55,909 bases of DNA from the IMG/VR virus record IMGVR_UViG_3300030380_000259, positions 1 through 55,909 of that record; one strand, given 5' to 3'. The position numbers were made by a program, and so were the translations under genes. The notes under the pieces are model-generated. The model saw nothing but the letters and a program-made list of their open reading frames with translations, was not told the origin of the DNA and searched no databases. Numbering within the stretch: the stretch's first letter is position 1; each line of letters begins with the position of its first letter. Positions 1 through 55,909 of the stretch are shown piece by piece. Source of the stretch: a virus. Its lineage: Duplodnaviria > Caudoviricetes.

Positions 1-219
1 CAATGCACCTGTCATAGCCATAGCCGCCTTTGGTGCGTTACGTGCCATGTACATAGATGTAGCTTCTAGTATCTCATCTTTCAAACCTTTGACAATAGAA
101 GTTGTTGGTGTGTTATCTGCGTAACCAGCAATCTTTTTTGCCTGTACAACATCACCATTTGCTTCTTCAAAAAGAACTGCAAGAAACTTTTGTTGTCTAT
201 CGTTTAATTGTCGTGTCAT
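1..219 (-). CDS. Terminase small subunit-like protein, 5' part (second allele, truncated by window edge)
   Basis: Same frame and near-identical translation to 55472-55843 (MTRQLNDRQQKFL vs MTRQLNERQQKFL). Confidence 0.7.
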   Translation of the reverse strand, partial: MTRQLNDRQQKFLAVLFEEANGDVVQAKKIAGYADNTPTTSIVKGLKDEILEATSMYMARNAPKAAMAMTGAL

Positions 220-285
220 GCCATCTCTCCAGTAGCCATAGCGTGAGCCAAACGTGTGCTACGTCCTTTTACCTGCCTTGCCCAC
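1..285. repeat. Terminal overlap, copy 1 (matches 55625-55909)
   Basis: Positions 1-72 and 209-285 are identical to the other end; 17 substitutions lie between them. Confidence 0.97.
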
Positions 286-5368: not shown

Positions 5369-5510
5369 CTCTTTTCTGTAATTCTTCTTTTCCTTTTTGC
5401 CACCAATGCACTCTTTCTGCTATAGCTTTAGCTTCACACAAGCCACAGAGCTGCACGAGAGTACCTTTTTTATTATAGATACAAGAAGAACACTTTAATT
5501 CTTTATTCAT
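5355..5510 (-). CDS. 51-aa CxxC-x11-CxxC zinc-finger protein (below ORF-track cutoff)
   Basis: MNKELKCSSCIYNKKGTLVQLCGLCEAKAIAERVHWWQKGKEELQKRVDNG; first ORF after the leftward promoter. Confidence 0.55.
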   Translation of the reverse strand: MNKELKCSSCIYNKKGTLVQLCGLCEAKAIAERVHWWQKGKEELQKRVDNG

Positions 5511-5588
5511 TTAAATGATTACAGTTAAAATGTTATTGGCAAAGGAATTATTTAAGGAATAGTTAACTATTTCAGTTTAACTGTTATA

Positions 5589-5617
5589 ATTATACCAGTT
5601 TTTACAGGAAGTGTCAA
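5589..5617 (-). promoter_or_regulatory. Consensus sigma70 promoter driving the leftward (late) arm
   Basis: TTGACA-N17-TATAAT with TG extension. Confidence 0.8.
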
Positions 5618-6003
5618 GCCCTCAAATAGGAAATAGGTAAAGTTTTTCTCTATCTATGTATAAAATAGGAAAATATTCTATAATAGTGAGTATAAAAGTA
5701 TCAGTTGTAGTTGTGGTTAACACTTAATTTACCTAATCTGTGTATTTATTCATGCACATATACGCACTACCCCCGTGTGGCGCATGCACGACCCCTTCAT
5801 CTGTCGATGAAGACTGCCCCAAAAGTCTGATTCAGCAACATTTTCCATAGAAAATGCTAGGAAAACCAAGTGTTTCAGTAGTTAAAACTACTGTTATGGT
5901 ATCAGTCGTCACTCTTCGAGTGGTTTGTAAAGTTGTAAACTAGGGATTTGTAAAGAATTTACAATGCCGATGCTTGGCTTCTTCATTCATTTATGAATGG
6001 TCA

Positions 6004-6021
6004 AAGTCCGCTGACGGACTA
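6004..6021. repeat. 18-bp palindromic box AAGTCCGCTGACGGACTA, copy 1
   Basis: Exact repeat; AGTCCG-CTGA-CGGACT dyad. Confidence 0.97.
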
Positions 6022-6212
6022 ACCCTAACACCTTTGGTGTTGTAGAAATACCACATCCCCTGTTGCAGTTGGGCAACACCTCACATGGGCGCAGTTTGGC
6101 GCAGGTACTTCGGAATAACAAGTTATTCCTGCAGTCACATGAAACGGCAGGGGCAGAGGATGGCGCATCACATCACGGAAAACCGACCACTTATTTCTCT
6201 CATATTTTCTAC

Positions 6213-6270
6213 GTGTTATATAAATATTAATCACAACTTGTTGTGAGTAATTAATATTTATTTATAACAC
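6213..6270. repeat. Long AT-rich imperfect palindrome upstream of the first early gene
   Basis: GTGTTATA-TAAATATTAA-TCACAAC-TT-GTTGTGA-GTAA-TTAATATTTA-TT-TATAACAC. Confidence 0.9.
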
Positions 6271-6290
6271 TTAAAATATGGAGATAAAAA

Positions 6291-6896
6291 ATGACAACAT
6301 CAAACTTCAAAAACTTCGCCACTCAGCTTGCTGAAGCTCCTAATACTTTAGAAGCCAAAGGCTTAGTGTTATCCCGTTGGGATAAATCTATTGTTTCTTC
6401 GGAGAAGAAAACATGGAAGTCTTTGACTTCTAGAGGTGGATTTTGGTTCTCCCTTGGAGAAGTTCTGTCTGAGATTCTAAAAGAATCTGGTGGTAGCAGA
6501 ATGGACTCAGCAAAGCTGAAAGACGCTAATCTTCATACCGTTGCAAAGCAACGTAGAAACGAAGCTATCAAGTTCTTTCAGAACTTTGACTTGATTGAAA
6601 ATCAAAAGCTGACTACCAAGTTTCAATCTATGACTAGATTGATTAGTGGTGTCAATGCTATTGTCAATCCAAAGGATGACAAGCCAACTGAACCAGAGGT
6701 TCAAAATGATGGTAAGTCCGCTGACGGACTAGATGAACCAAAGGTTCAAGAGGTCAAAGCCTTTACACAACTGAACGCTGAAGAAATCGCTTTTGAAGCG
6801 TTGCTTCAATGTGAAGTAAACAATATTCCTGTTAAGGAATTTATGTTAGCTCTCAAAGACCAACTACAGTTGGTTGACCAAAAGGCAGTAGCATAA
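6291..6896 (+). CDS. First early gene, hypothetical protein
   Basis: GGAG RBS, 201 aa, followed by a terminator. Confidence 0.85.
   Translation: MTTSNFKNFATQLAEAPNTLEAKGLVLSRWDKSIVSSEKKTWKSLTSRGGFWFSLGEVLSEILKESGGSRMDSAKLKDANLHTVAKQRRNEAIKFFQNFDLIENQKLTTKFQSMTRLISGVNAIVNPKDDKPTEPEVQNDGKSADGLDEPKVQEVKAFTQLNAEEIAFEALLQCEVNNIPVKEFMLALKDQLQLVDQKAVA
6714..6731. repeat. 18-bp palindromic box, copy 2 (inside CDS)
   Basis: Exact copy encoding KSADGL; flanked by two TGAACC-ARA-GGTTCA dyads. Confidence 0.97.
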
Positions 6897-6915
6897 GCTA
6901 CTGTCTAACTTTTTT
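6884..6915 (+). terminator. Rho-independent terminator candidate
   Basis: GGCAGTAGC-ATAA-GCTACTGTC followed by a slightly offset T-tract. Confidence 0.55.
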
Positions 6916-6930
6916 ATTGGAGATAAAACT

Positions 6931-7164
6931 ATGCGTAATCCACAAGCTACGTCATTCATTCGTAATTTCAACGCAAAGCGTATCACTTCATCATGGAACG
7001 CTACAGACGAAGCCTATGGCTTTGCCGTCTTTCCTGATAGAGATAACACTAAGCCATTCTGTTTTCGGAGTGGGCAAGCAAAAGCTATGGCTGATGAATA
7101 CAAGCGCAAACAAGCTATGCTTGACAAAGCTGAAGCAATGGCTATACTGGATTCACTACTTTAG
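6931..7164 (+). CDS. Early hypothetical protein
   Basis: GGAGATAAAA RBS, same as the upstream gene. Confidence 0.75.
   Translation: MRNPQATSFIRNFNAKRITSSWNATDEAYGFAVFPDRDNTKPFCFRSGQAKAMADEYKRKQAMLDKAEAMAILDSLL
7121..7148 (+). promoter_or_regulatory. sigma70-type promoter TTGACA-N16-TATACT
   Basis: Good hexamers at the end of a CDS, upstream of a non-coding structured region. Confidence 0.5.
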
Positions 7165-7165
7165 A

Positions 7166-7220
7166 GTTATAACATAAAATAAATAAGAATGTTTATGATT
7201 ATTTATTTTATTTATATAAC
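7166..7220. repeat. Second AT-rich imperfect palindrome
   Basis: GTTATA..ATAAAATAAATAA...TTATTTATTTTAT..TATAAC; shares the TATAACACTTAA tail with 6213-6274. Confidence 0.8.
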
Positions 7221-7228
7221 ACTTAACT

Positions 7229-7246
7229 AAGTCCGCTGACGGACTA
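7229..7246. repeat. 18-bp palindromic box, copy 3
   Basis: Exact copy. Confidence 0.97.
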
Positions 7247-7249
7247 ACA

Positions 7250-7430
7250 AATTGAAAGGTTTTAAAATGTAGCGAAAATCTAATGGCAAAAAAAGTGTGA
7301 GTAGGTTCGCCCCATGTGAATTGAAAGCTATGCCAAGCAAGGTGACATGGGGGCATACCGTAAAAGTCTAGGCGGTATGTAGGCAGTGATGCGACCACGT
7401 AAAAAGCCTAGCATCCTTTAACTTCGTTAC
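7250..7430 (+). ncRNA. Putative structured non-coding RNA (three adjacent stems)
   Basis: Stems CCCCATGT/ACATGGGG, GCATACCG/CGGTATGT and AGGC/GCCT; no credible ORF; lies between two boxes. Confidence 0.4.
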
Positions 7431-7431
7431 C

Positions 7432-7449
7432 AAGTCCGCTGACGGACTA
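7432..7449. repeat. 18-bp palindromic box, copy 4
   Basis: Exact copy, immediately before the RBS of 7462. Confidence 0.97.
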
Positions 7450-7461
7450 AGAGAGGACATT

Positions 7462-8088
7462 ATGAAAAAAGAATTTGAAATGGAAATTGCTATCAAGAAT
7501 ATTATCGCTATCAGACGCAAGGCAAAGCCTGAAGACGTAGCAGACGGTATCGCATGGTATGCAAAAGCATACGAGGAGTGCCGTATCATTGCTGAGAGAT
7601 TCGACTTGCCATTGCATATGGTAGTGGGTGTAGTTTCTGCTTTGTCACCCAACAATCGTTGGGCAACTAACATAATCAATGCGAGAGATGTTATCGAGAC
7701 ATGGGATTGTGGCTATGCCCCTGATACAGTTTCCGTATGTACTTACAATGCCATGAAGCTAAAAGCCTTTGCCATCTTAGATGGTGGTAGCAAAACCATT
7801 GATGAAGTAAAAGCTATCTTGAATGGCAAGAAAATTGTATGTTTCTTTGAGAATATACTAGGTGAGGACACTTGCACGATTGATGGTCATGCTCGTAACA
7901 TTGCATACAATCAACGTGTCAATCTTACAGATGCTAAAACTAGCATAGGCAAGCTAGAGTATGCCAATCTACAAGAAGCATATTTGCAAGCGTCAAAGCG
8001 TTGTAGCGTCAATGGCAGACGCTTGAAAACATACGAATTGCAAGCAATTACATGGGTCACATGGAGAAAGATGCACAATATTGCATAG
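7462..8088 (+). CDS. Conserved phage protein, distant HhH-GPD DNA-glycosylase-like fold
   Basis: WY...ALSPNNRW..N...K...F..NI...TIDGH...QAITW pattern. Confidence 0.55.
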   Translation: MKKEFEMEIAIKNIIAIRRKAKPEDVADGIAWYAKAYEECRIIAERFDLPLHMVVGVVSALSPNNRWATNIINARDVIETWDCGYAPDTVSVCTYNAMKLKAFAILDGGSKTIDEVKAILNGKKIVCFFENILGEDTCTIDGHARNIAYNQRVNLTDAKTSIGKLEYANLQEAYLQASKRCSVNGRRLKTYELQAITWVTWRKMHNIA

Positions 8089-8099
8089 GAGATTTGACA

Positions 8100-8249
8100 A
8101 TGGTGATAAGACCTGTTAATCCTGTTGCTAAAGCAATGGCACTAAGTCGTAGACGGCAACAGGTTGTTCCTAACAAGAAAAAGTATAATCGAAAAAAGGA
8201 TAAGAATTATGCAGATACGATTAGAGAAAATGAAGTCTTTAAAGACTAA
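8100..8249 (+). CDS. Small basic peptide, ArfA-like
   Basis: AGGAG RBS; NPVAKAM...RQQVVPNKKKYNRK. Confidence 0.55.
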   Translation: MVIRPVNPVAKAMALSRRRQQVVPNKKKYNRKKDKNYADTIRENEVFKD

Positions 8250-8340
8250 GCCACGCAAGTCAAAGCGTGATGAATGGAAGCGTGCGCGTCAAGCAATGCG
8301 TAAGGCAAAGAGAAATTTACAGGAGAAAATCTATGCTTAA
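8209..8340 (+). CDS. 43-aa basic peptide MQIRLEKMKSLKTKPRKSKRDEWKRARQAMRKAKRNLQEKIYA (below cutoff)
   Basis: AAGGA RBS; stop overlaps the start region of the next gene. Confidence 0.6.
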   Translation: MQIRLEKMKSLKTKPRKSKRDEWKRARQAMRKAKRNLQEKIYA

Positions 8341-8707
8341 AAATGGAATGAGAGTTCGCGTATATTGGAATTTACACAAGAATAAATATTCAGTACAAGA
8401 TGCTAAGACTAACCGAGTTGTAGCTCATGTAGGTGCTATCGCATTGCAAAACTGTAAGCTTACTATTCGTAAATCAGGACAAGAACGTGCTAGACGTGAG
8501 GGCAGGAAAAATGTGCATGCTTTTGTCACAGGTATGTTCTATACTGATGGGCGTTACAAAAACGCATGGTGGAGTGATGGAGCTAGACAAGTTTCATATA
8601 ATCCGTACAAGAATGACACGTTTATGCGTGAGAACAAACCAATTCACACGTCACCCACAATTACTATGGGTACGCATGAAGACCGTCCAAGTGTTTGGGC
8701 AATATAA
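8333..8707 (+). CDS. Conserved phage hypothetical protein (VYxNLHK...RKNVHAFV)
   Basis: AGGAG RBS before ATG 8333; recognisable phage motif. Confidence 0.8.
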   Translation: MLKNGMRVRVYWNLHKNKYSVQDAKTNRVVAHVGAIALQNCKLTIRKSGQERARREGRKNVHAFVTGMFYTDGRYKNAWWSDGARQVSYNPYKNDTFMRENKPIHTSPTITMGTHEDRPSVWAI

Positions 8708-8709
8708 CT

Positions 8710-8727
8710 AAGTCCGCTGACGGACTA
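8710..8727. repeat. 18-bp palindromic box, copy 5
   Basis: Exact copy; identity with copy 3 extends to 27 nt (8705-8731 = 7224-7250). Confidence 0.97.
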
Positions 8728-8756
8728 ACAACTAATCTCTTGAAAGGAGAATTATT

Positions 8757-9167
8757 ATGACTATACAAACTATTACTTTTCACAAGCGTTCAACAGGTAA
8801 AACAGGTCAGGTGCTTGCATCGCCACAGGTAGAAGCTAAATTAGCTAAAGTCGAAAGACTATATGCTGAGTATCATGGTGTTAAGCTAGGACGTGGCAAG
8901 CTATATGACATCGTATTGGACGCATCACGTCAAGCTAAAGAAGAGGTTGGCGGTTATTTGCAGTACACTACACAAGCCGTTGTAGGTATTGTGCTAGAAC
9001 ATATGCACAGAGAGCTTGGCAAAGCCGTAAGACGTAAGAACAGAGATACCATAGGTATTGAAGTTGGTGAATTTACTATTGTTAATCTGCGTAGTCTTGC
9101 ACGTAATACCAAAGGTAAGGTGTACGATGCCAACGGCAAGCGCGTATTGAAAGGAAAGGTGGCTTAA
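8757..9167 (+). CDS. Early hypothetical protein
   Basis: AAGGAG RBS. Confidence 0.8.
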   Translation: MTIQTITFHKRSTGKTGQVLASPQVEAKLAKVERLYAEYHGVKLGRGKLYDIVLDASRQAKEEVGGYLQYTTQAVVGIVLEHMHRELGKAVRRKNRDTIGIEVGEFTIVNLRSLARNTKGKVYDANGKRVLKGKVA

Positions 9168-13701: not shown

Positions 13702-14019
13702 ATGAAAAATCAAAACGCATATAAAATGGCTAGAACGACAGACCCAGAGACAAGTCACAAGGCAGCCAAAAATATAGAACCAACACGTTTAGAGAGTGTT
13801 GTATTGGATGCCATACGACACTTTGGAGAATCAGGAGCTACTATGGATGAAGTAGATGAAGCACTGCCTAACATCAGAAGTGCTAGTATATCTCCAAGAT
13901 TTAAACCTTTGCTAGATAAAGGTTATGTCATAGGAGATGGTAGGACACGTAAAGCTCTCTATTCTAATAAACAACAGAGGATACTTTGGGCGGTAGAATT
14001 TTACAATGAAAACAGTTAA
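13702..14019 (+). CDS. Winged-HTH DNA-binding protein
   Basis: ARTTDPETSHKAA N-terminus; GATxDE...SISPRFKPL..KG wHTH pattern. Confidence 0.7.
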   Translation: MKNQNAYKMARTTDPETSHKAAKNIEPTRLESVVLDAIRHFGESGATMDEVDEALPNIRSASISPRFKPLLDKGYVIGDGRTRKALYSNKQQRILWAVEFYNENS

Positions 14020-14884
14020 CCACTTAGTTGACAGATACTATTCATCTAATGATTTCAGTATGTTAAGAGACAAGTCTAAAGCAGACTATAAATATTTCTT
14101 AGGCATAATGACTGACAAATTTGGTGATATAAAGTATGATAAGCTGACGAGTAAGGAAGCTAAACACGCATACGAAGAGTGGGTTGAGCGAGGCATTAGC
14201 TTCGCCAACCACATCTGTACTGTGTCATCCATCGTGTATCGCTATGCTATTGACATGGAGTATGCGACAATAAATCCTTTCTCTAATGTCAAGCGTAAGA
14301 CACCTATTCAACGTAAGGTTGTATGGACAGAGACAGATGTTACCAACTTTCTTGACACCGCTTATTCACAGTTTGAGTGGCGTAGCCTTGGGTTAATTGT
14401 ACATATGGCATACGAATGGTGTCAGAGATTGGGTGACATGAGGCTATTGACGTGGGATAATCTTGACTTGCCAGACAAAAAGCTATATCTGGAGCAGTCA
14501 AAGCGTAGAGCAGAGGTAACTTTGCCTATCGAAGATGACTTACACTCCATGTTGATACAACAACAGGAAGACTTCGGCTTTCAACAGTACGTTGCTCCTC
14601 GTATAAAGCCCGTACAGGGCGAGTACCAACCATATAGCATAGATAGACTAGGAAAAGCCGCACGTGTCGTTATGCGTGAAGCAGGACTGTCTGATGAGCT
14701 ACGTCTTATGGACTTACGAAGGACAGGAACAACACAAATGGTGGAAGCTGGTGTCGGTATGGCACAAATAATGTCGGTTACAGGACACAGTAACCCACAG
14801 TCAGTCAAACCATACATGAAAAATACTTACGAGAGTGCAAATTATGCCTTGACCGCACGTAAATCTCGTGGTAAAAGCAGTTAA
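14006..14884 (+). CDS. int: Tyrosine recombinase / integrase
   Basis: QRLGD (R), QSKR (K), DLRRT (R), TGH and Y catalytic pattern. Confidence 0.92.
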   Translation: MKTVNHLVDRYYSSNDFSMLRDKSKADYKYFLGIMTDKFGDIKYDKLTSKEAKHAYEEWVERGISFANHICTVSSIVYRYAIDMEYATINPFSNVKRKTPIQRKVVWTETDVTNFLDTAYSQFEWRSLGLIVHMAYEWCQRLGDMRLLTWDNLDLPDKKLYLEQSKRRAEVTLPIEDDLHSMLIQQQEDFGFQQYVAPRIKPVQGEYQPYSIDRLGKAARVVMREAGLSDELRLMDLRRTGTTQMVEAGVGMAQIMSVTGHSNPQSVKPYMKNTYESANYALTARKSRGKSS

Positions 14885-20753: not shown

Positions 20754-20971
20754 TGGAAGAGTTAGAACAATTAGCGGAAGAAATAAAACTTAAAGAAGAA
20801 GAGCTAAGAAACCTACGTAAAGAGTATCAAGATAAAAGAATGTCAGGTTTACGTTCTGCGTTACAAGCAAGACAAGAAGCTGATAAACTTATTCAAGAAG
20901 AACTTCGGTCGATGGGTTACAAACAGTTTAATCCTATTCCGCTAGGAAACTGGCGAAACTTTGCCTCCTAA
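20753..20971 (+). CDS. Coiled-coil hypothetical protein
   Basis: TAATG coupling; AGGAG RBS. Confidence 0.75.
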   Translation: MEELEQLAEEIKLKEEELRNLRKEYQDKRMSGLRSALQARQEADKLIQEELRSMGYKQFNPIPLGNWRNFAS

Positions 20972-21425
20972 TTATAAACAGTACAAAGCCGCACGTAAGT
21001 ATGGATATAGGAGTGGTTTAGAGCATAAGATATCACTCTATCTTGATGAACTCAAAGTTAAATACGAGTACGAAAAACTCAAGATAGAGTGGGAAGACTT
21101 AGCATATCGCACCTATACACCAGACTTCGTGTTAGCTAATGGTATCATTATTGAGACTAAAGGAATGTTTACTGCGTCAGATAGACGCAAGCATCTTGCA
21201 ATTAAGAAGCAACATCCTAAACTTGATATACGATTTGTGTTTGAAAACAGTAGACGTAAGCTCAGAAAGGGTGCAAAGTCTACGTATGAAGAATGGTGTA
21301 TACGATATGGATTTAGATATTACAACAGAATAATACCAGAAGATTGGCTTAAAGAAAAAGGCAAGAATAAACATGCTAAGTTTATAAAGTTCTCTGGTAC
21401 TAAAGTTAAAAGGAGATATAAATGA
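20961..21425 (+). CDS. Endonuclease I (T7 gp3-like Holliday junction resolvase)
   Basis: YRSGLE, YTPDF, IETKG, DRRKH and DIRFVF motifs. Confidence 0.93.
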   Translation: MPPNYKQYKAARKYGYRSGLEHKISLYLDELKVKYEYEKLKIEWEDLAYRTYTPDFVLANGIIIETKGMFTASDRRKHLAIKKQHPKLDIRFVFENSRRKLRKGAKSTYEEWCIRYGFRYYNRIIPEDWLKEKGKNKHAKFIKFSGTKVKRRYK

Positions 21426-25920: not shown

Positions 25921-25950
25921 AAAAGAAGGGGCTTAATTGCCCCTTTATTC
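25919..25950. terminator. Bidirectional terminator between the converging arms
   Basis: AAGGGGC-TTAATT-GCCCCTT flanked by A- and T-rich tracts. Confidence 0.85.
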
Positions 25951-28900
25951 CGTATATACGTCTTCTAATACCTTACCTATATCAACTAGTATTGATAAGT
26001 CTTTGAAGTCCATACTATCAGGAACTTTATTATATCTCTTAAAAAATTCTAGTTGTGACTCTTCTCTTATACCGCTTGGTAAACGTCTATACTTTAACAT
26101 CGCATCAGCGTAGGCTGGAGCATCTGCAAAAAATACCTTTTCATCTGATACTTGGCTTCGTACTGTTTTAATTTGTTTGTCTAAAAAGTTTCTAATTTTC
26201 ATAGATACATAGGCTTCTTCACTATATTCTTGTTTTAATTCATCACTAGATATTTGATACTGTGACCTGAGTGCGTCTTCATAATCTTGTGCTTCTTCCA
26301 CTATCATAGGTAATGCATCTCTAACAACTTTATTTTCAAATGTTTTTATTCCCGGAACCCTAGATTTACTACTTAATTCATACTCAGTAAAACCAAAACT
26401 AGCTATGTATTCACCAAAAGGTTCATCACGAGTAGTAATATTAAGACCACCAAGCACACGAAGTATAGGAGCAACACGTTCTTTTCTTTCAGCAAATAAA
26501 AATTCTTTAGAGGGTCTTTGAAACTCTCTACTAGGTGATTCAAATCTTCCAAATGACTTACCCAGTTCACCAAAAAAAGCAGATTGAAAATCTAAGGTAG
26601 GGTCTTTACCTCTTTCTTTAAAATCTGTAGGACGCATACCGAAAGACCGTTCAGCTTCTATAACTTGACCATAAGGAACAGCCCAAGTAGATAGATAGTT
26701 TCCTAGAAGTCTACCAGTTCTTCTTCCTAAAACCTCATCACCAACTAAATCTTTAGTAGATGCTATATCAACTACCTCGTCTATGAGAGTATTACCTACT
26801 CCTGTTCTAACATTAGTGCCTAAAAAAGTTTCTCTCATCTCTCTGTCATCGTACCAATCTCCGTAAGTACCATTTATAAGACGCTTCATTGCTTCTCCCA
26901 TCCATAAAAACTGTCTTACTGGAAATTGTGGTGTGGTATCTATTTCTGAATTATCCCCAGTTACTAGCATTTTGTAATCGCTGGGAGCATCATCCATTGT
27001 TCTATATTGATATGCAGCACCCACTGTAGCTAGACCTATAAGGTTACGAGATATTCTCTGTCTATCTTTGAATGTATATTTTTTAATTTCTCCCCTACCA
27101 AGTAAACTTATGAGTCTTTTAGTCAACGGTATAGATGCACCTGCCGCATATTGACCCATAAGTTCCATACTATTAAACATAAAACGTGGAAAAGGTAAGG
27201 CAACTGTTAAGCCATTACGAACAATAAATTGAGATGTAGCCCTAAAAATCTCTACATCAGGTGCTTTAGCGTATGTCACATCTAATGCTTTTGTTGTTGC
27301 CTCTGCTATAATGTCATTAAATGACCTAGCATCTTTAGGTTTTACAGTACCTGCATCATTTAAAAGGTCACGTATTTTTCCTTTATTTATTGTGTCTATT
27401 AAATCAATTTTATATTCACGTTTTACTAATCTTTCTAACTCACCTAAAAACGCACCTCTACGTATTAGATGTTCTTGCCATCTGTTAGGTGTATTAAGAA
27501 CATCCATAGCATCTTCAAGTTCAGTAAGAACTTTATCTGTTCTACTACCAGTGCCACGTCCTGTCATCTTCTGTATTTCATTTATGTTATTAAACATAAG
27601 GTCATACTGTTTTTCTAACCCATCTTGCTTCAATATAAAATCTACATATTCTTTTACATCCATAGATGTTTCAGGACCGAACATATATTTCATATGTCTA
27701 AAACTGTCTTTCCAATTACTACCTGAAAATAAAGATTTACCTGCGGCTCTATAACCCTCTTCTGATAAATTGTATAAGGCAGTATCCATAACATTACCTA
27801 AACCTTCAAGTGGCGCACGGATACCACCTGATGTAAGGTTACGTGCGGCAGTAGCCACCTGAGATACTAGTCCTGCTCTTCTTACATTTTCTGTTCTCAT
27901 TATAAATTTACGTATAGCACCCTGTGCTTCTTTTGTAGCCGCTTCTTGTAGTGCAATCATCTCATTAGCAGGACGCATACGTTTTATTTGAGACAACTTC
28001 TGTAATGTTTTACCTGCCTCTGAACCAGAACCTACCACAGTAAGTATATAGTCTTCAAAAGATAGATTATATTTATTAAGAAGGTCTATTAGTTCTTCAC
28101 CTTTAACAAGCTCTTTATTAAGTGTTAATTCAAATAGATTATCTATAACTGTTTTATTATTGTCAAAGGCTGTAGGTTTTAACTCTTTTAAATCTGCAAC
28201 TGCCGCTACTAAAGCATCAAACTTTTCAGGTTTAAGTAATGGTTGTGTTAGTGTATCTCCTTGCCCTGCTAACAAAGCGGCATCCGCATCTATATCTGCA
28301 CTACCTAGTAGAAAATTTTTAACACCCTTTCGACTTGCTGTAACTATTTCTTCAGCAGTTTCTACTCCTGCCTCTCTGGTTTTTGATTCATTAATAACTT
28401 TTAAACCATCTTCCCCTGTATCAGATATAATCTTACCTGTTTTATTTTCAAAGGAATCTATTAAATCACTAGCAATATCACGGTTTTCAGAGGCTACTTT
28501 AGATGCTAACTCAGCTTTTGCATCGATATCTGCATCTGTATTTATCATAGCTTGTTTTGCGTTTAACTTTCTATTTAAATATTTTTGTAGTGCTTGTTCT
28601 GATTTTATCTCTTTCTTTAACTCTTTAAGAGTTCTTTTTGATGTGTTACCTGCTAAACCAAAGGTAGAACCAACGGCAGGAACAGCCTCTGCCATTTCTA
28701 ATAATGCTCCTAAATCACCAGCAAACTTTTTACCTGCTGTCTTAGGGTCAAACGGCAACATCTCTTTGCCTGTCATACCAAAGAGTTTATTATCTTCCGT
28801 AAATGTTTCGTGAATAGCACGAGTGATAGCTTCTCCTGAATCTTTCGCAGTTTCTTCTATCCCAGCAACAGCAGATATTAAAGTTTCTAAACCTGCATTA

Positions 28901-29409
28901 CCAGTAGCGGCTATTACTTTTGCTATTGTTTTTAATCCTGTCGGTGCTTTGTCAACAAAATCTTGAGCATCAATTATATCTGCTTCTGATAATAATTTAT
29001 CTATTTCTTTTTTATCTTCATATCCAAACAGTTTATCCGTCTGCTCTTCTACAGTAGGTTGGTCAAAGTCAAGAACAAGTTTAACATTAGCAGGGTCATT
29101 GGGGTCATCACTTACAGGTACACTAGGAACATACTTATAACCAACAGGAACTTTCCCTGTGCGTATATAAAATGCTTCTGGTGATTCGTCTATTTCGGGT
29201 ACATCTGTTACCACTATCTCATCTACTGCTGTAGCAGGAGTGTTGTCAGGGGTAGCATCATTTAAAAAAGTAGTATTACTTTCTATCTCATCTAGTTGTT
29301 TAGATAAATTATTAGTATCTACTCTATCTAAATTAGAAGAAGATACAGAAGATGTCTCCTCTTCTTCTAAAGCAGAAAGTTGTCTTAAATAATTATTGCT
29401 ATCTGTCAT
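25945..29409 (-). CDS. Large internal virion / ejection protein
   Basis: 1154 aa, helical; last gene of the structural arm. Confidence 0.65.
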   Translation of the reverse strand: MTDSNNYLRQLSALEEEETSSVSSSNLDRVDTNNLSKQLDEIESNTTFLNDATPDNTPATAVDEIVVTDVPEIDESPEAFYIRTGKVPVGYKYVPSVPVSDDPNDPANVKLVLDFDQPTVEEQTDKLFGYEDKKEIDKLLSEADIIDAQDFVDKAPTGLKTIAKVIAATGNAGLETLISAVAGIEETAKDSGEAITRAIHETFTEDNKLFGMTGKEMLPFDPKTAGKKFAGDLGALLEMAEAVPAVGSTFGLAGNTSKRTLKELKKEIKSEQALQKYLNRKLNAKQAMINTDADIDAKAELASKVASENRDIASDLIDSFENKTGKIISDTGEDGLKVINESKTREAGVETAEEIVTASRKGVKNFLLGSADIDADAALLAGQGDTLTQPLLKPEKFDALVAAVADLKELKPTAFDNNKTVIDNLFELTLNKELVKGEELIDLLNKYNLSFEDYILTVVGSGSEAGKTLQKLSQIKRMRPANEMIALQEAATKEAQGAIRKFIMRTENVRRAGLVSQVATAARNLTSGGIRAPLEGLGNVMDTALYNLSEEGYRAAGKSLFSGSNWKDSFRHMKYMFGPETSMDVKEYVDFILKQDGLEKQYDLMFNNINEIQKMTGRGTGSRTDKVLTELEDAMDVLNTPNRWQEHLIRRGAFLGELERLVKREYKIDLIDTINKGKIRDLLNDAGTVKPKDARSFNDIIAEATTKALDVTYAKAPDVEIFRATSQFIVRNGLTVALPFPRFMFNSMELMGQYAAGASIPLTKRLISLLGRGEIKKYTFKDRQRISRNLIGLATVGAAYQYRTMDDAPSDYKMLVTGDNSEIDTTPQFPVRQFLWMGEAMKRLINGTYGDWYDDREMRETFLGTNVRTGVGNTLIDEVVDIASTKDLVGDEVLGRRTGRLLGNYLSTWAVPYGQVIEAERSFGMRPTDFKERGKDPTLDFQSAFFGELGKSFGRFESPSREFQRPSKEFLFAERKERVAPILRVLGGLNITTRDEPFGEYIASFGFTEYELSSKSRVPGIKTFENKVVRDALPMIVEEAQDYEDALRSQYQISSDELKQEYSEEAYVSMKIRNFLDKQIKTVRSQVSDEKVFFADAPAYADAMLKYRRLPSGIREESQLEFFKRYNKVPDSMDFKDLSILVDIGKVLEDVYTE

Positions 29410-55472: not shown

Positions 55473-55843
55473 TAATCATCCTCACTTACTGCTTTAGGTG
55501 GCATAAGCATAACACCACCGCTTGCTTCTACCTGCATTTTTTCTGTCTTCACCAAACCTGAACGGTCTAATAGTTCTTTAGCCGCTGACATCTTGTCACG
55601 TATGCCTAGTTCTGTTGGGTCATACAATGCACCTGTCATAGCCATAGCCGCCTTTGGTGCGTTACGTGCCATGTACATAGATGTAGCTTCTAGTATTTCA
55701 TCCTTTAGTCCTTTGACAATAGAGGTAGTTGGTGTATTGTCTGCATACCCAGCAATCTTCTTTGCCTGTACAACATCACCATTTGCTTCTTCAAAAAGAA
55801 CCGCAAGAAACTTTTGCTGTCTTTCATTTAACTGTCGTGTCAT
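55472..55843 (-). CDS. Terminase small subunit-like protein
   Basis: LNERQQKFL...A...AGY HTH; AAKELLDR motif; upstream of TerL. Confidence 0.65.
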   Translation of the reverse strand: MTRQLNERQQKFLAVLFEEANGDVVQAKKIAGYADNTPTTSIVKGLKDEILEATSMYMARNAPKAAMAMTGALYDPTELGIRDKMSAAKELLDRSGLVKTEKMQVEASGGVMLMPPKAVSEDD

Positions 55844-55909
55844 GCCATCTCTCCAGTAGCCATAGCGTGAGCCAAACGTGTGCTACGTCCTTTTACCTGC
55901 CTTGCCCAC
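55625..55909. repeat. Terminal overlap, copy 2
   Basis: Matches 1-285 with 17 substitutions. Confidence 0.97.

Follow-up and report, generated by a model that had tools for sequence, protein, structure and literature searches.

In an HMO-2011-type podophage, a control region and the complete first gene of one genome arm are covered by an array of about 30 short hairpin-forming sequences, the stems of which are unrelated to one another in sequence. The array is strongly enriched over shuffled controls, is conserved and covaries among relatives, and obeys DNA-like rules in its loops and closing pairs. Since relatives keep the hairpin positions while the sequences change, selection appears to act on nucleic-acid structure, probably on DNA structure. 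The explanation tentatively preferred here, to which we give somewhat less than an even chance, is that a selected, DNA-level hairpin array marks a strand-opening or replication-start zone beside divergent early promoters.

The hairpin array and its surroundings

Perfect inverted repeats with a stem of at least 5 bp and a loop of 2–4 nt were listed over the window, i.e. the whole stretch of 55,909 nt that was analysed. It contains 268 such dyads, 33 of which (stems of 5–8 bp) lie inside positions 5795–6905. Counted per 600 nt in steps of 300, the dyads number 10 at 5701, 16 at 6001, 23 at 6301 and 13 at 6601, as compared with a maximum of 8 outside the array and a window median of 2. Stems of at least 6 bp occur 25 times in the 1.1 kb of the array and 66 times across the remaining 54.8 kb, and the median spacing between neighbouring array hairpins is about 11 nt. 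The saturation with short inverted repeats described in a previous, sequence-only reading of this DNA is thus real and far above chance in all shuffles, and the fall in density that it placed past about 6900 is borne out by the drop from 29.7 dyads per kb in the array to 7.6 in 6906–9000 and 3.4–4.8 farther on.

Gene 1 (6291–6896, + strand; 201 aa; 22–23 perfect dyads) carries 22 dyads by this definition, whereas synonymous-codon shuffling yields 3.92 ± 1.87 (maximum 10; z 9.5), codon permutation 2.25 ± 1.53 and mononucleotide shuffling 1.84 ± 1.33 (1000 shuffles each). The shuffle control that had been proposed for every gene sets gene 1 clearly apart from the others among 70 ORFs (z 9.5, with 3.6 for the runner-up and a median of 0.09). 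All 20 dyads previously listed in its coding sequence were found at their positions, the one at 6859 being better written as ACCAACT-AC-AGTTGGT, and three further overlapping ones were detected at 6325, 6793 and 6870. Nine of the ten dyads listed upstream were recovered as well; the remaining one, at 6061, has a 6-nt loop and fails the definition, and one at 5876 had been missed. A repeat family search over 5400–9000 returned the AGTCCG box only, and shared sequence of the REP, MITE or CRISPR-like kind was not found among the dyads. This box, AGTCCG-CTGA-CGGACT, is present in five copies (6005–6020, + strand; 6715–6730, 7230–7245, 7433–7448 and 8711–8726) vs none in shuffles. Of 112 loci, 76 contain it, as a rule some 270 nt 5' of the gene 1 start and again just past the stop.

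The array is bordered on the left by back-to-back sigma-70-like promoters on both strands (5563–5617), the hexamers of which are conserved in 42 upstream sequences; the leftward promoter-like element is TTGACA-17-TATAAT, with 12/12 matches, and the rightward one TTAACT-16-TATAAT. Directly left of the array lies a conserved non-coding block (5711–5790, + strand) that reads TGTGGTTAACA..ACCTAATCTGTGTA and is followed by a C-rich stretch. Its column identity is 0.82–0.89, its identity to roseophage CRP-345 is 83%, and it was found in 82 clade-1 loci and most clade-2 loci, with about 10x depth in metagenome unitigs; it is a candidate sequence-specific signal. The non-coding part of the array (5795–6250, + strand) holds 10 perfect dyads, one of them a copy of the AGTCCG box. 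It overlaps an imperfect, AT-rich palindrome of 100 nt (6191–6291, centre 6238; minus-strand self-match 76%), at which hairpin density dips and which contains the promoter-like sequence TTGTGA-16-TATAAC(ACTTAA) 5' of gene 1 together with a mirrored copy. Within gene 1, two TGAACC-ARA-GGTTCA copies flank the AGTCCG box in the linker-coding segment (6689–6748, + strand). Such iteron-like palindromes of the type NNCC-RRA-GGNN are present in 2–5 copies per genome, with a core that is the same within a genome and different between clades, and duplication of a peptide repeat could account for them equally well. Where gene 1 ends, the dense array is bounded on its right by a terminator-like hairpin and an ensuing T run (6883–6915, + strand); by the intrinsic-terminator criterion, 6883–6906 is the only array hairpin with a clear T run.

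Gene 1 is a real coding sequence, as judged from codon-position entropies of 0.63/0.44/1.00, and in its product a variable linker joins a conserved N-terminal part of about 120 aa to a C-terminal part of about 40 aa. It has 522 homologues and belongs to no recognised family: the protein had no match in Pfam and PHROGs, the PDB profile search gave only a GARP-domain hit at E 0.026, taken as chance, and the ESM Atlas gave only a weak DUF3102 lead (score 0.92, 150 shared features). A profile search of 1.84 billion proteins returned 77 representatives, and Pfam scans of 10 distant relatives left 9 without a match and produced one spurious hit. A role as small terminase was rejected, as CRP-345 has TerS annotated elsewhere, and so was that of an HUH/Rep nickase, the invariant columns containing neither an invariant Tyr nor an HUH motif. 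The rightward arm that opens with gene 1 carries genes for a DnaB-like helicase, DNA polymerase A and endonuclease I; from its position, gene 1 is presumably early.

Conservation and covariation among relatives

All 80 distinct close homologues of gene 1 (median nucleotide identity 60%) contain 16–25 hairpins. The distant homologues (n = 65), whose loci were searched by subgroup alignment, have a median of 20.2 hairpins per kb vs 2–4 per kb on the leftward arm. Paired cells amount to 84.4%, a share that sinks to 30–43% once partners are slid; both sides have changed in 43 of the 124 pairs vs 14–25 with slid partners, and the covariation score is 0.171 vs 0.036–0.073, counts that are not independent events, the homologous sequences sharing kinship. 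In the non-coding part, 25–40 of the 42 upstream alignments keep the hairpin positions, their stems being made of alternative sequences. Variability at synonymous sites is 0.55 in stems vs 1.00 at free sites (p 0.018), a comparison that is partly circular since stems were defined by conservation, and with respect to codon phase, pairings that involve the wobble base are favoured (80 and 53 vs 28). Absence of enrichment and covariation from homologous first genes had been named beforehand as the outcome that would speak against the proposed structural code; both are retained, and together with the codon-position entropies they uphold the view that a structure-level constraint is laid over a genuine protein gene.

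Where gene 1 ends, the aggregate profile falls from 3.25 to 0.95 hairpins per 100 nt, and it dips at -100 to 0; on the right arm a one-sided gradient of hairpins reaches about +2.5 kb. A bump at -1000 to -800 was not counted as part of the array: it consists of AT-rich promoter palindromes which lack C-G closing pairs and therefore represent a different class from the array hairpins.

Hairpin rules and competing explanations

Compared with shuffles, 3-nt loops are eightfold and 2- and 4-nt loops about fourfold enriched, loops of at least 5 nt occur at about the shuffled frequency or less, and 0-nt loops are depleted. Closing pairs are C-G in 127 cases, T-A in 71, A-T in 21 and G-C in 23, vs 73, 86, 51 and 50, respectively, in the flanking control. 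Triloops of the type GNA outnumber TNC by 124 to 39 and ANA outnumber TNT by 115 to 49, so that the + (coding) strand bears the GNA/ANA loops in a ratio of about 3:1; the non-coding part behaves similarly, with Y-R closing pairs 99 vs 48 and, of 64 loops, 38 R-N-A vs 12 T-N-Y. The GNNA tetraloops include 15 GNYA and 22 GNRA, and neither UNCG nor CUUG occurs among the array loops. At conserved pairs, the counts of G·T and A·C under three thresholds are 1219/1219, 409/350 and 75/144, and internal single mismatches comprise 8 G·T, 7 A·C and 42 others in the gene and 6 G·T vs 2 A·C upstream; a tolerance of G·U far above that of A·C, as in functional RNA helices generally, is not seen here. Computed folding energies of single array hairpins as ssDNA range from -3.5 to -5.9 kcal/mol, and fold z-scores are stronger with DNA than with RNA parameters and equal for both strands. 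The covariance models of Rfam 15, run over 5795–6905, gave only a chance-level CRISPR-DR match (E 0.34); CsrA-type sites were dismissed, GGA loops being rare. Several of these features fit DNA mini-hairpins better than RNA, from which we infer that the array acts at the DNA level. The DNA triloop character claimed in the sequence-only reading agrees with this picture, as the loop and closing-pair rules resemble those of the N4-promoter mini-hairpins.

The hairpins could alternatively fold in the early transcript, i.e. the leader and gene 1 mRNA, and serve in resistance to RNases, Rho, R-loop formation or RNA-guided defence or in the tuning of translation. The array does lie 3' of promoters, thins out at the promoter and RBS of gene 1 and stops at a terminator-like hairpin that carries a T run; gene 1 alone is affected among the 70 ORFs, A-rich loops stand on the sense strand, and RNA viruses offer a close analogue, their ORFs bearing dense and uniform short hairpins with an altered codon pairing phase. 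We nevertheless consider this explanation unlikely, if by no means negligible, given that G·U is tolerated no more than A·C, that 3-nt loops outnumber 4-nt ones, with UNCG and CUUG absent and GNYA nearly as common as GNRA, that fold z-scores are lower with RNA parameters and stems equally good on both strands, that no Rfam family matches, and that the upstream hairpins sit 5' of gene 1's own promoter-like element. A mutational origin of the array is improbable. Intrastrand template switching (quasi-palindrome correction) in an often single-stranded stretch would keep turning imperfect dyads into perfect ones, the hairpins themselves being functionless, and hairpin numbers that remain stable (16–25 per gene) with conserved positions over 80 homologues at 60% median nucleotide identity, loops and closing pairs that obey stability rules, strand asymmetry of the loops and a codon-phase bias that shows accommodation to the protein all argue otherwise. 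The lower synonymous variation in stems likewise speaks for selection over template switching, with the circularity mentioned above, and the process would still require a local cause. In its favour, stems are perfect and have sharp limits, one-mismatch intermediates are few (57 distinct vs 242 perfect dyads), G·T and A·C are symmetrical, and copying from arm to arm would mimic compensatory change.

Two further explanations assign the array to a phage polymerase or to the end of the genome. Hairpins serving as promoters or entry sites for a structure-reading enzyme (virion RNA polymerase or primase) would be of the right type, since a 5–7-bp stem, a 3-nt GNA-type loop and C-G closure are those of the N4 virion-RNAP promoters, and, with the + strand as lagging-strand template of a rightward fork, its GNA loops would suit a primase. 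However, the hairpins share no sequence, they number about 30 instead of the three of N4, the left end of which has at most 7 per 600 nt, and the strand that bears their GNA loops is the non-template one with respect to downstream genes. Furthermore, the large virion ORFs showed no RNAP match in Pfam, PHROG or PDB-sequence searches; a PF00940 scan was empty but uninformative, its control having been empty too. We regard this possibility as very remote. There is also little probability that the array marks a physical terminus or terminal repeat that serves entry, end protection, concatemer processing or packaging. One 80-kb contig corresponds to 1.45 genome lengths, headful packaging from a pac site is predicted for the relative PhiM6, and the terminal overlaps of the window and other complete contigs lie elsewhere, in inconsistent places, as is typical of wrapped circular assemblies. 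The window itself is such an assembly, its ends sharing an overlap of 285 nt (93% identity) that falls within coding sequence, so that the 'probable first-injected end' of the sequence-only reading is not established. What suggests a terminus is the conserved non-coding motif directly left of the array, the five independent contigs that begin in the C-rich stretch just past it, one 56.6-kb contig with a 247-nt terminal repeat that starts in the same stretch, and a hairpin density that decays with distance on one side only; marine genomes with Puniceispirillum-phage-like terminases are, moreover, reported to have fixed terminal repeats. The unitig breaks at the motif, on the other hand, are due to its being common to many co-occurring strains and are not molecule ends, and the contig breaks near it can be explained by strain-graph branching. 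In the published accounts, as far as they extend to relatives, both fixed terminal repeats and headful packaging occur.

According to the preferred explanation, a strand-opening zone, the array would work on DNA once the stretch is unwound or negatively supercoiled. Its + strand, the lagging-strand template for a fork that moves rightward and the non-template strand when transcription runs that way, would fold into a row of hairpins that impedes re-annealing and gives SSB or RecA little space; the outcome would be a strand-opening, replication-start or priming zone adjoining the divergent early promoters. Gene 1 may encode an initiator bearing its own site, the iteron-like palindromes in the linker-coding part, as in lambda O/ori. 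The array coincides with the minimum of the cumulative GC skew and with the place where the strands diverge, the skew being confounded with gene orientation. Hairpins of such type extrude in N4 at physiological supercoiling, according to a review. Stems of 5–8 bp are marginal for cruciform extrusion, and the phage encodes a T7-type endonuclease I which would cut extruded cruciforms. Against an origin, the leftward arm lacks a mirrored array, although a bidirectional origin predicts one. Also against this reading, the dense array stops exactly at the gene 1 stop and the terminator-like hairpin and dips at the promoter/RBS; these limits fit a transcript-level unit at least as well, and sense-strand loops rich in A are compatible with RNA too. 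An origin or priming role of the array is speculative, and the broader claim that a sequence-independent DNA structure code, written via codon choice, determines where strands are opened, replication starts or priming occurs in HMO-2011-type phages is possible but doubtful.

Relation to known systems and significance

Origins are known inside initiator genes, as with the lambda ori in gene O and SPP1 oriL in gene 38, and consist of several copies of one iteron and an AT-rich unwinding element. The array resembles them in its position in the first gene of the replication arm, in the dyad repeats in a part coding for a flexible linker and in the adjoining early promoters; it differs in that most of its dyads have no sequence in common and that they extend over the entire gene, for which no initiator homology was found. 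Single-strand initiation signals, such as the G4 complementary-strand origin and the ssi sites of plasmids, comprise one to three specific hairpins. They share with the array stable hairpins on SSB-coated ssDNA as possible priming entry sites, whereas the array is a conserved set of about 30 hairpins over a gene.

The N4 hairpins have, according to the review, a 5–7-bp stem closed by C-G and a 3-nt loop with a sheared G:A pair (GNA), and resist SSB. The array agrees with the N4 virion-RNAP promoters in this small-hairpin type (5–7-bp stem, purine-rich 3-nt loop, C-G closure), and the N4 left end shows hairpins of the same type. N4, however, has three of them, with a conserved -17 to +1 sequence, located 5' of genes and read by a virion RNAP of 3500 aa, while the roughly 30 hairpins of the array are unrelated in sequence, lie mostly within coding sequence and have no shared sequence of the -17 to +1 type. 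GNA is carried by the template strand in N4 (its complement being on the + strand) and by the non-template, coding strand in the array. The pervasive short-hairpin folding (peHaPi) of capsidless RNA viruses is similar to the array in that coding sequence is tiled by short, uniform hairpins arranged in rows, the codon pairing phase is shifted and the loops have no common motif; it spans whole RNA genomes, in contrast to a local 1.1-kb stretch of a dsDNA phage with DNA-type loops and no G·U tolerance. Perfect inverted repeats within protein-coding sequence are also reported for Nematomorpha mitochondria; these are reportedly long (up to 284 bp) and few, unlike the dense 5–8-bp stems with 3-nt loops found here (PMC6649704). 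A literature search that combined HMO-2011 with inverted repeats or hairpins and included the main paper on HMO-2011-type phages found no mention of the array; its scope did not extend to the 2013 HMO-2011 paper or to any supplements.

Short DNA hairpins have so far been known as single regulatory sites, namely the N4 promoters and single-strand initiation signals, and coding sequence densely tiled with hairpins has been reported only very recently, solely for RNA viruses. The array represents a conserved, localised tiling that follows DNA-type rules in a dsDNA phage group dominating marine viromes. It indicates that the synonymous sites of a whole gene can face strong structural selection, which bears on dN/dS analyses and on recoding, and inverted-repeat surveys that demand arms of at least 10 bp are blind to such elements. 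HMO-2011-type phages are among the most abundant phage groups of the sea, and the cultured HMO-2011, CRP-1 and CRP-345 offer a testable candidate for the replication-start or genome-end signal of the group. If the broader claim of a sequence-independent structure code is true, the array would represent a new class of origin or ssDNA-management element, conserved by structure instead of iteron sequence.

Enrichment of short hairpins in the leader and gene 1

Dyads, taken as perfect inverted repeats whose stem is 5 bp or longer and whose loop spans 2–4 nt, were listed over the whole 55,909-nt window. Of the 268 dyads found, 33 lie inside 5795–6905, the array that comprises a non-coding leader and gene 1 (CDS 6291–6896, + strand, 201 aa). 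All 20 dyads that the sequence-only reading had placed inside this CDS were recovered, as were nine of its ten upstream ones; the tenth, at 6061, fails because its loop is 6 nt long. Counts in 600-nt windows peak at 23 (at 6301), the median being 2 and the maximum elsewhere 8, and stems of at least 6 bp number 25 within the 1.1-kb array versus 66 over the other 54.8 kb. The described fall in density after about 6900 was also upheld, with 7.6 dyads per kb in 6906–9000 and 3.4–4.8 per kb farther out. Gene 1 itself contains 22 dyads, compared with 3.92 ± 1.87 in 1000 synonymous-codon shuffles (maximum 10) and 2.25 ± 1.53 after codon permutation. Among 70 ORFs submitted to the shuffle test no other was comparable to gene 1 (z 9.5; runner-up 3.6; median 0.09).

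Gene 1 is a real protein gene, with codon-position entropies of 0.63/0.44/1.00 in 80 distinct homologues; marine data contain 522 homologues (E ≤ 0.001). In its product, a variable linker joins a strongly conserved N-terminal part of about 120 aa to a C-terminal part that is also conserved; neither the protein nor its distant relatives matched any Pfam, PHROG or PDB-sequence family. Since synonymous shuffles retain 3.9 dyads versus 2.25 for codon permutation, the protein sequence has in part adapted as well.

Puniceispirillum phage HMO-2011 is about 70% identical in nucleotides to the array region, and its gp74 is 48.5% identical to the gene 1 protein. A leftward arm (terminase and structural genes) begins at about 5.5 kb and a rightward arm (C5 methylase, integrase, DnaB-like helicase, DNA polymerase A and T7-type endonuclease I) at 6.3 kb, and cumulative GC skew is lowest where the two arms diverge. 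As judged from the encoded tyrosine integrase (14006–14884, +), the phage may be temperate. The T7-type endonuclease I (20961–21425, +), a cutter of Holliday junctions and cruciforms, would cut the array were it extruded as cruciforms. The ORF that closes the structural arm (25945–29409, −; 1154 aa), without a match in Pfam, PHROG or PDB-sequence, may from its sequence encode an ejection protein or a polymerase, both being candidates. A GP20-b cis-regulatory RNA motif (Rfam) at 7351–7410 (+) scored below threshold (31.7 bits, gathering score 36.2, E 3e-4).

Conservation, covariation and selection

The sequence-only reading had proposed a structure-level code overlaid on a protein gene, and in the relatives of gene 1 both the enrichment and compensatory changes were found. 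At 22 viral-contig loci each homologue carries 18–25 hairpins (30–41 per kb), compared with 3.5–7.9 per kb in the flanks, and the 80 distinct homologues of the first clade, 55–95% identical in nucleotides to the window gene (median 60%), carry 16–25 each (median 21). The second, distant clade, of which roseophage CRP-345 gp01 is a member, has a median of 20.2 hairpins per kb in 65 distinct genes (range 5.3–32.6) and the same profile. Aggregated over the 80 loci, hairpins per 100 nt amount to 1.5–2.8 between −500 and −200, dip at −100 to 0, reach 3–4.6 in the gene, fall sharply at the stop codon and stay at about 1 to some +2.4 kb, the leftward arm having 0.1–0.5.

At fixed hairpin positions the stems vary, for example TTATCCC/GGGATAA versus TTGTCCC/GGGACAA, and one site has the alternative stems ATCACC, ATCAGC and ATCTGC. 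In a consensus structure of 124 pairs, derived from a MAFFT alignment of the 80 genes and controlled by sliding the partners, 84.4% of cells are paired (30–43% with slid partners), 43 pairs show changes on both sides (14–25) and the covariation score is 0.171 (0.036–0.073), the sequences being related and the counts hence not independent events. Non-coding hairpins behave as those in gene 1, with conserved positions and differing stems; near 5956, 38 of 42 sequences have a hairpin, with five different stems among them.

Synonymous third positions of conserved residues had a variability of 0.55 in stems (n = 26) versus 1.00 outside hairpins (n = 17; p 0.018), a comparison with some circularity, conservation having served to define the stems. 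Triloop hairpins number 80 and 53 in two favoured codon-phase classes, in which a wobble base is present in two of the three stem pairs, versus 28 in the wobble-wobble class, as would be expected if hairpins were fitted onto a constrained protein.

Pairing and loop rules of the array

Several features suggest that the molecule that folds is DNA and not RNA. G·T is not commoner than A·C in conserved pair columns (1219/1219, 409/350 and 75/144 at three thresholds), nor is it enriched in the pair directly outside the stem (45 versus 70). Hairpins with one internal mismatch gave G·T 8, A·C 7 and other 42 in the gene (n = 57), and 6, 2 and 27 upstream of it (n = 35). Loops of 3 nt are enriched 8-fold and those of 2 or 4 nt about 4-fold, loops of at least 5 nt show no enrichment, and spacer-less palindromes are depleted. 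The closing pairs 5′-C..G-3′, T..A, A..T and G..C occur 127, 71, 21 and 23 times, versus 73, 86, 51 and 50 in the flanks. In both clades together, GNA triloops outnumber their complement TNC (124 versus 39) and ANA outnumber TNT (115 versus 49); GNNA tetraloops number 37 (22 GNRA and 15 GNYA), and no UNCG or CUUG tetraloop occurs. Because the non-coding part has the same bias (R-N-A 38 versus T-N-Y 12, n = 64), codon usage does not explain it. Stems are symmetric between strands, but loops favour the + strand. These loop and closing-pair rules are those of the d(C-GNA-G) mini-hairpin, which a review on N4 describes for promoter hairpins extruded under physiological supercoiling. Relative to synonymous shuffles, fold z-scores were −7.0 and −8.1 with DNA parameters versus −5.3 and −6.0 with RNA parameters, nearly equal between the two strands, and single hairpins have ssDNA folding energies of −3.5 to −5.9 kcal/mol.

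Surrounding elements and possible role

Conserved back-to-back sigma-70-like promoters (5563–5617) are followed, directly before the array, by a conserved non-coding block (5711–5790) consisting of TGTGGTTAACA..ACCTAATCTGTGTA and a C-rich stretch. The block is kept across both clades, including CRP-345, and its roughly 10-fold unitig depth in marine metagenomes indicates that it is common to many co-occurring strains; its candidate functions are those of a pac site, a terminus, an origin or a promoter signal. An AT-rich imperfect palindrome (6191–6291; 100 nt, 76%, centre 6238) holds the promoter-like TTGTGA-16-TATAACACTTAA of gene 1, an element that recurs at 7193–7226, together with a mirrored leftward copy behind which no ORF lies. 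Gene 1 ends in a terminator-like hairpin. The box AGTCCG-CTGA-CGGACT has five copies (6005–6020, 6715–6730, 7230–7245, 7433–7448 and 8711–8726) versus none in shuffles. Its general form, AGTCCG-N4-CGGACT, is found at 76 of 112 loci, usually about 270 nt upstream of gene 1 and just past the stop. The box typically brackets the gene and precedes ribosome-binding sites of downstream genes. In relatives the stem is kept and the loop is mostly ACAG, usually uniform per genome, some genomes having the upstream copy inverted (loop CTGT); a regulator that is dimeric or binds hairpins may recognise the box. The segment of gene 1 that encodes the linker is made up of 2–5 NNCC-RRA-GGNN palindromes, whose core is repeated within a genome and differs between clades. 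In lambda, the segment of gene O that encodes the linker holds the iterons.

A genome-end function of the array is unlikely. In one complete contig, a terminal repeat of 247 nt begins right after the conserved motif of the 5711–5790 block, and five contigs start there; sharing of the motif by many strains, however, makes unitigs break there as well, and the overlaps of another complete contig and of the window lie elsewhere. The two ends of the window (1–285 and 55625–55909) share a 285-nt overlap that is 93% identical and situated within coding sequence. Its differences resemble strain variation, so the window is a circular assembly that wraps around and derives from a mixed population, and the overlap was rejected as a terminal repeat. 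In the literature, fixed terminal repeats are given for Puniceispirillum-phage-like marine genomes, and the relative PhiM6 is predicted to use pac-type headful packaging. One 80,374-nt viral contig (about 1.45 genome lengths) carries the gene 1 homologue twice (loci L151 and L191), about 55.2 kb apart, and is a concatemer or wrap-around assembly of a clade-2 phage. Some contigs of metagenome runs X2–X4 match the window at the motif (5747) and the gene 1 terminator (6881) and not between, likely reflecting co-occurring strains with array and gene 1 less than 90% identical.

A footprint of template switching is about as improbable as a genome-end function. Structured early RNA, ranked second of five explanations, is possible, the array boundaries being transcript-like, but the pair and loop rules do not fit it. 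N4-like promoters rank last and are very improbable: the hairpin type is alike, but the hairpins here share no sequence, number and strand differ, as probably does the reader, and the left end of N4 itself has at most 7 dyads per 600 nt. Short hairpins pervading capsidless RNA viruses similarly tile ORFs, but in RNA and genome-wide. A large inverted-repeat survey required arms of 10 bp or more, so that an element of this type would escape it. Literature on HMO-2011, the 2013 HMO-2011 paper and its supplements lying outside coverage, yielded no paper on inverted repeats or hairpins, and the main paper on HMO-2011-type phages, supplements aside, mentions no hairpin, palindrome, inverted repeat, replication origin, terminal repeat or promoter.

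Best supported is the conclusion that selection acts here on a hairpin array of DNA type. The closest known systems further include single-strand initiation signals and origins located within initiator genes. Tentatively ranked first, although at somewhat less than even probability, is a role as a zone of strand opening, replication start or priming, where unwinding would let the + strand fold.
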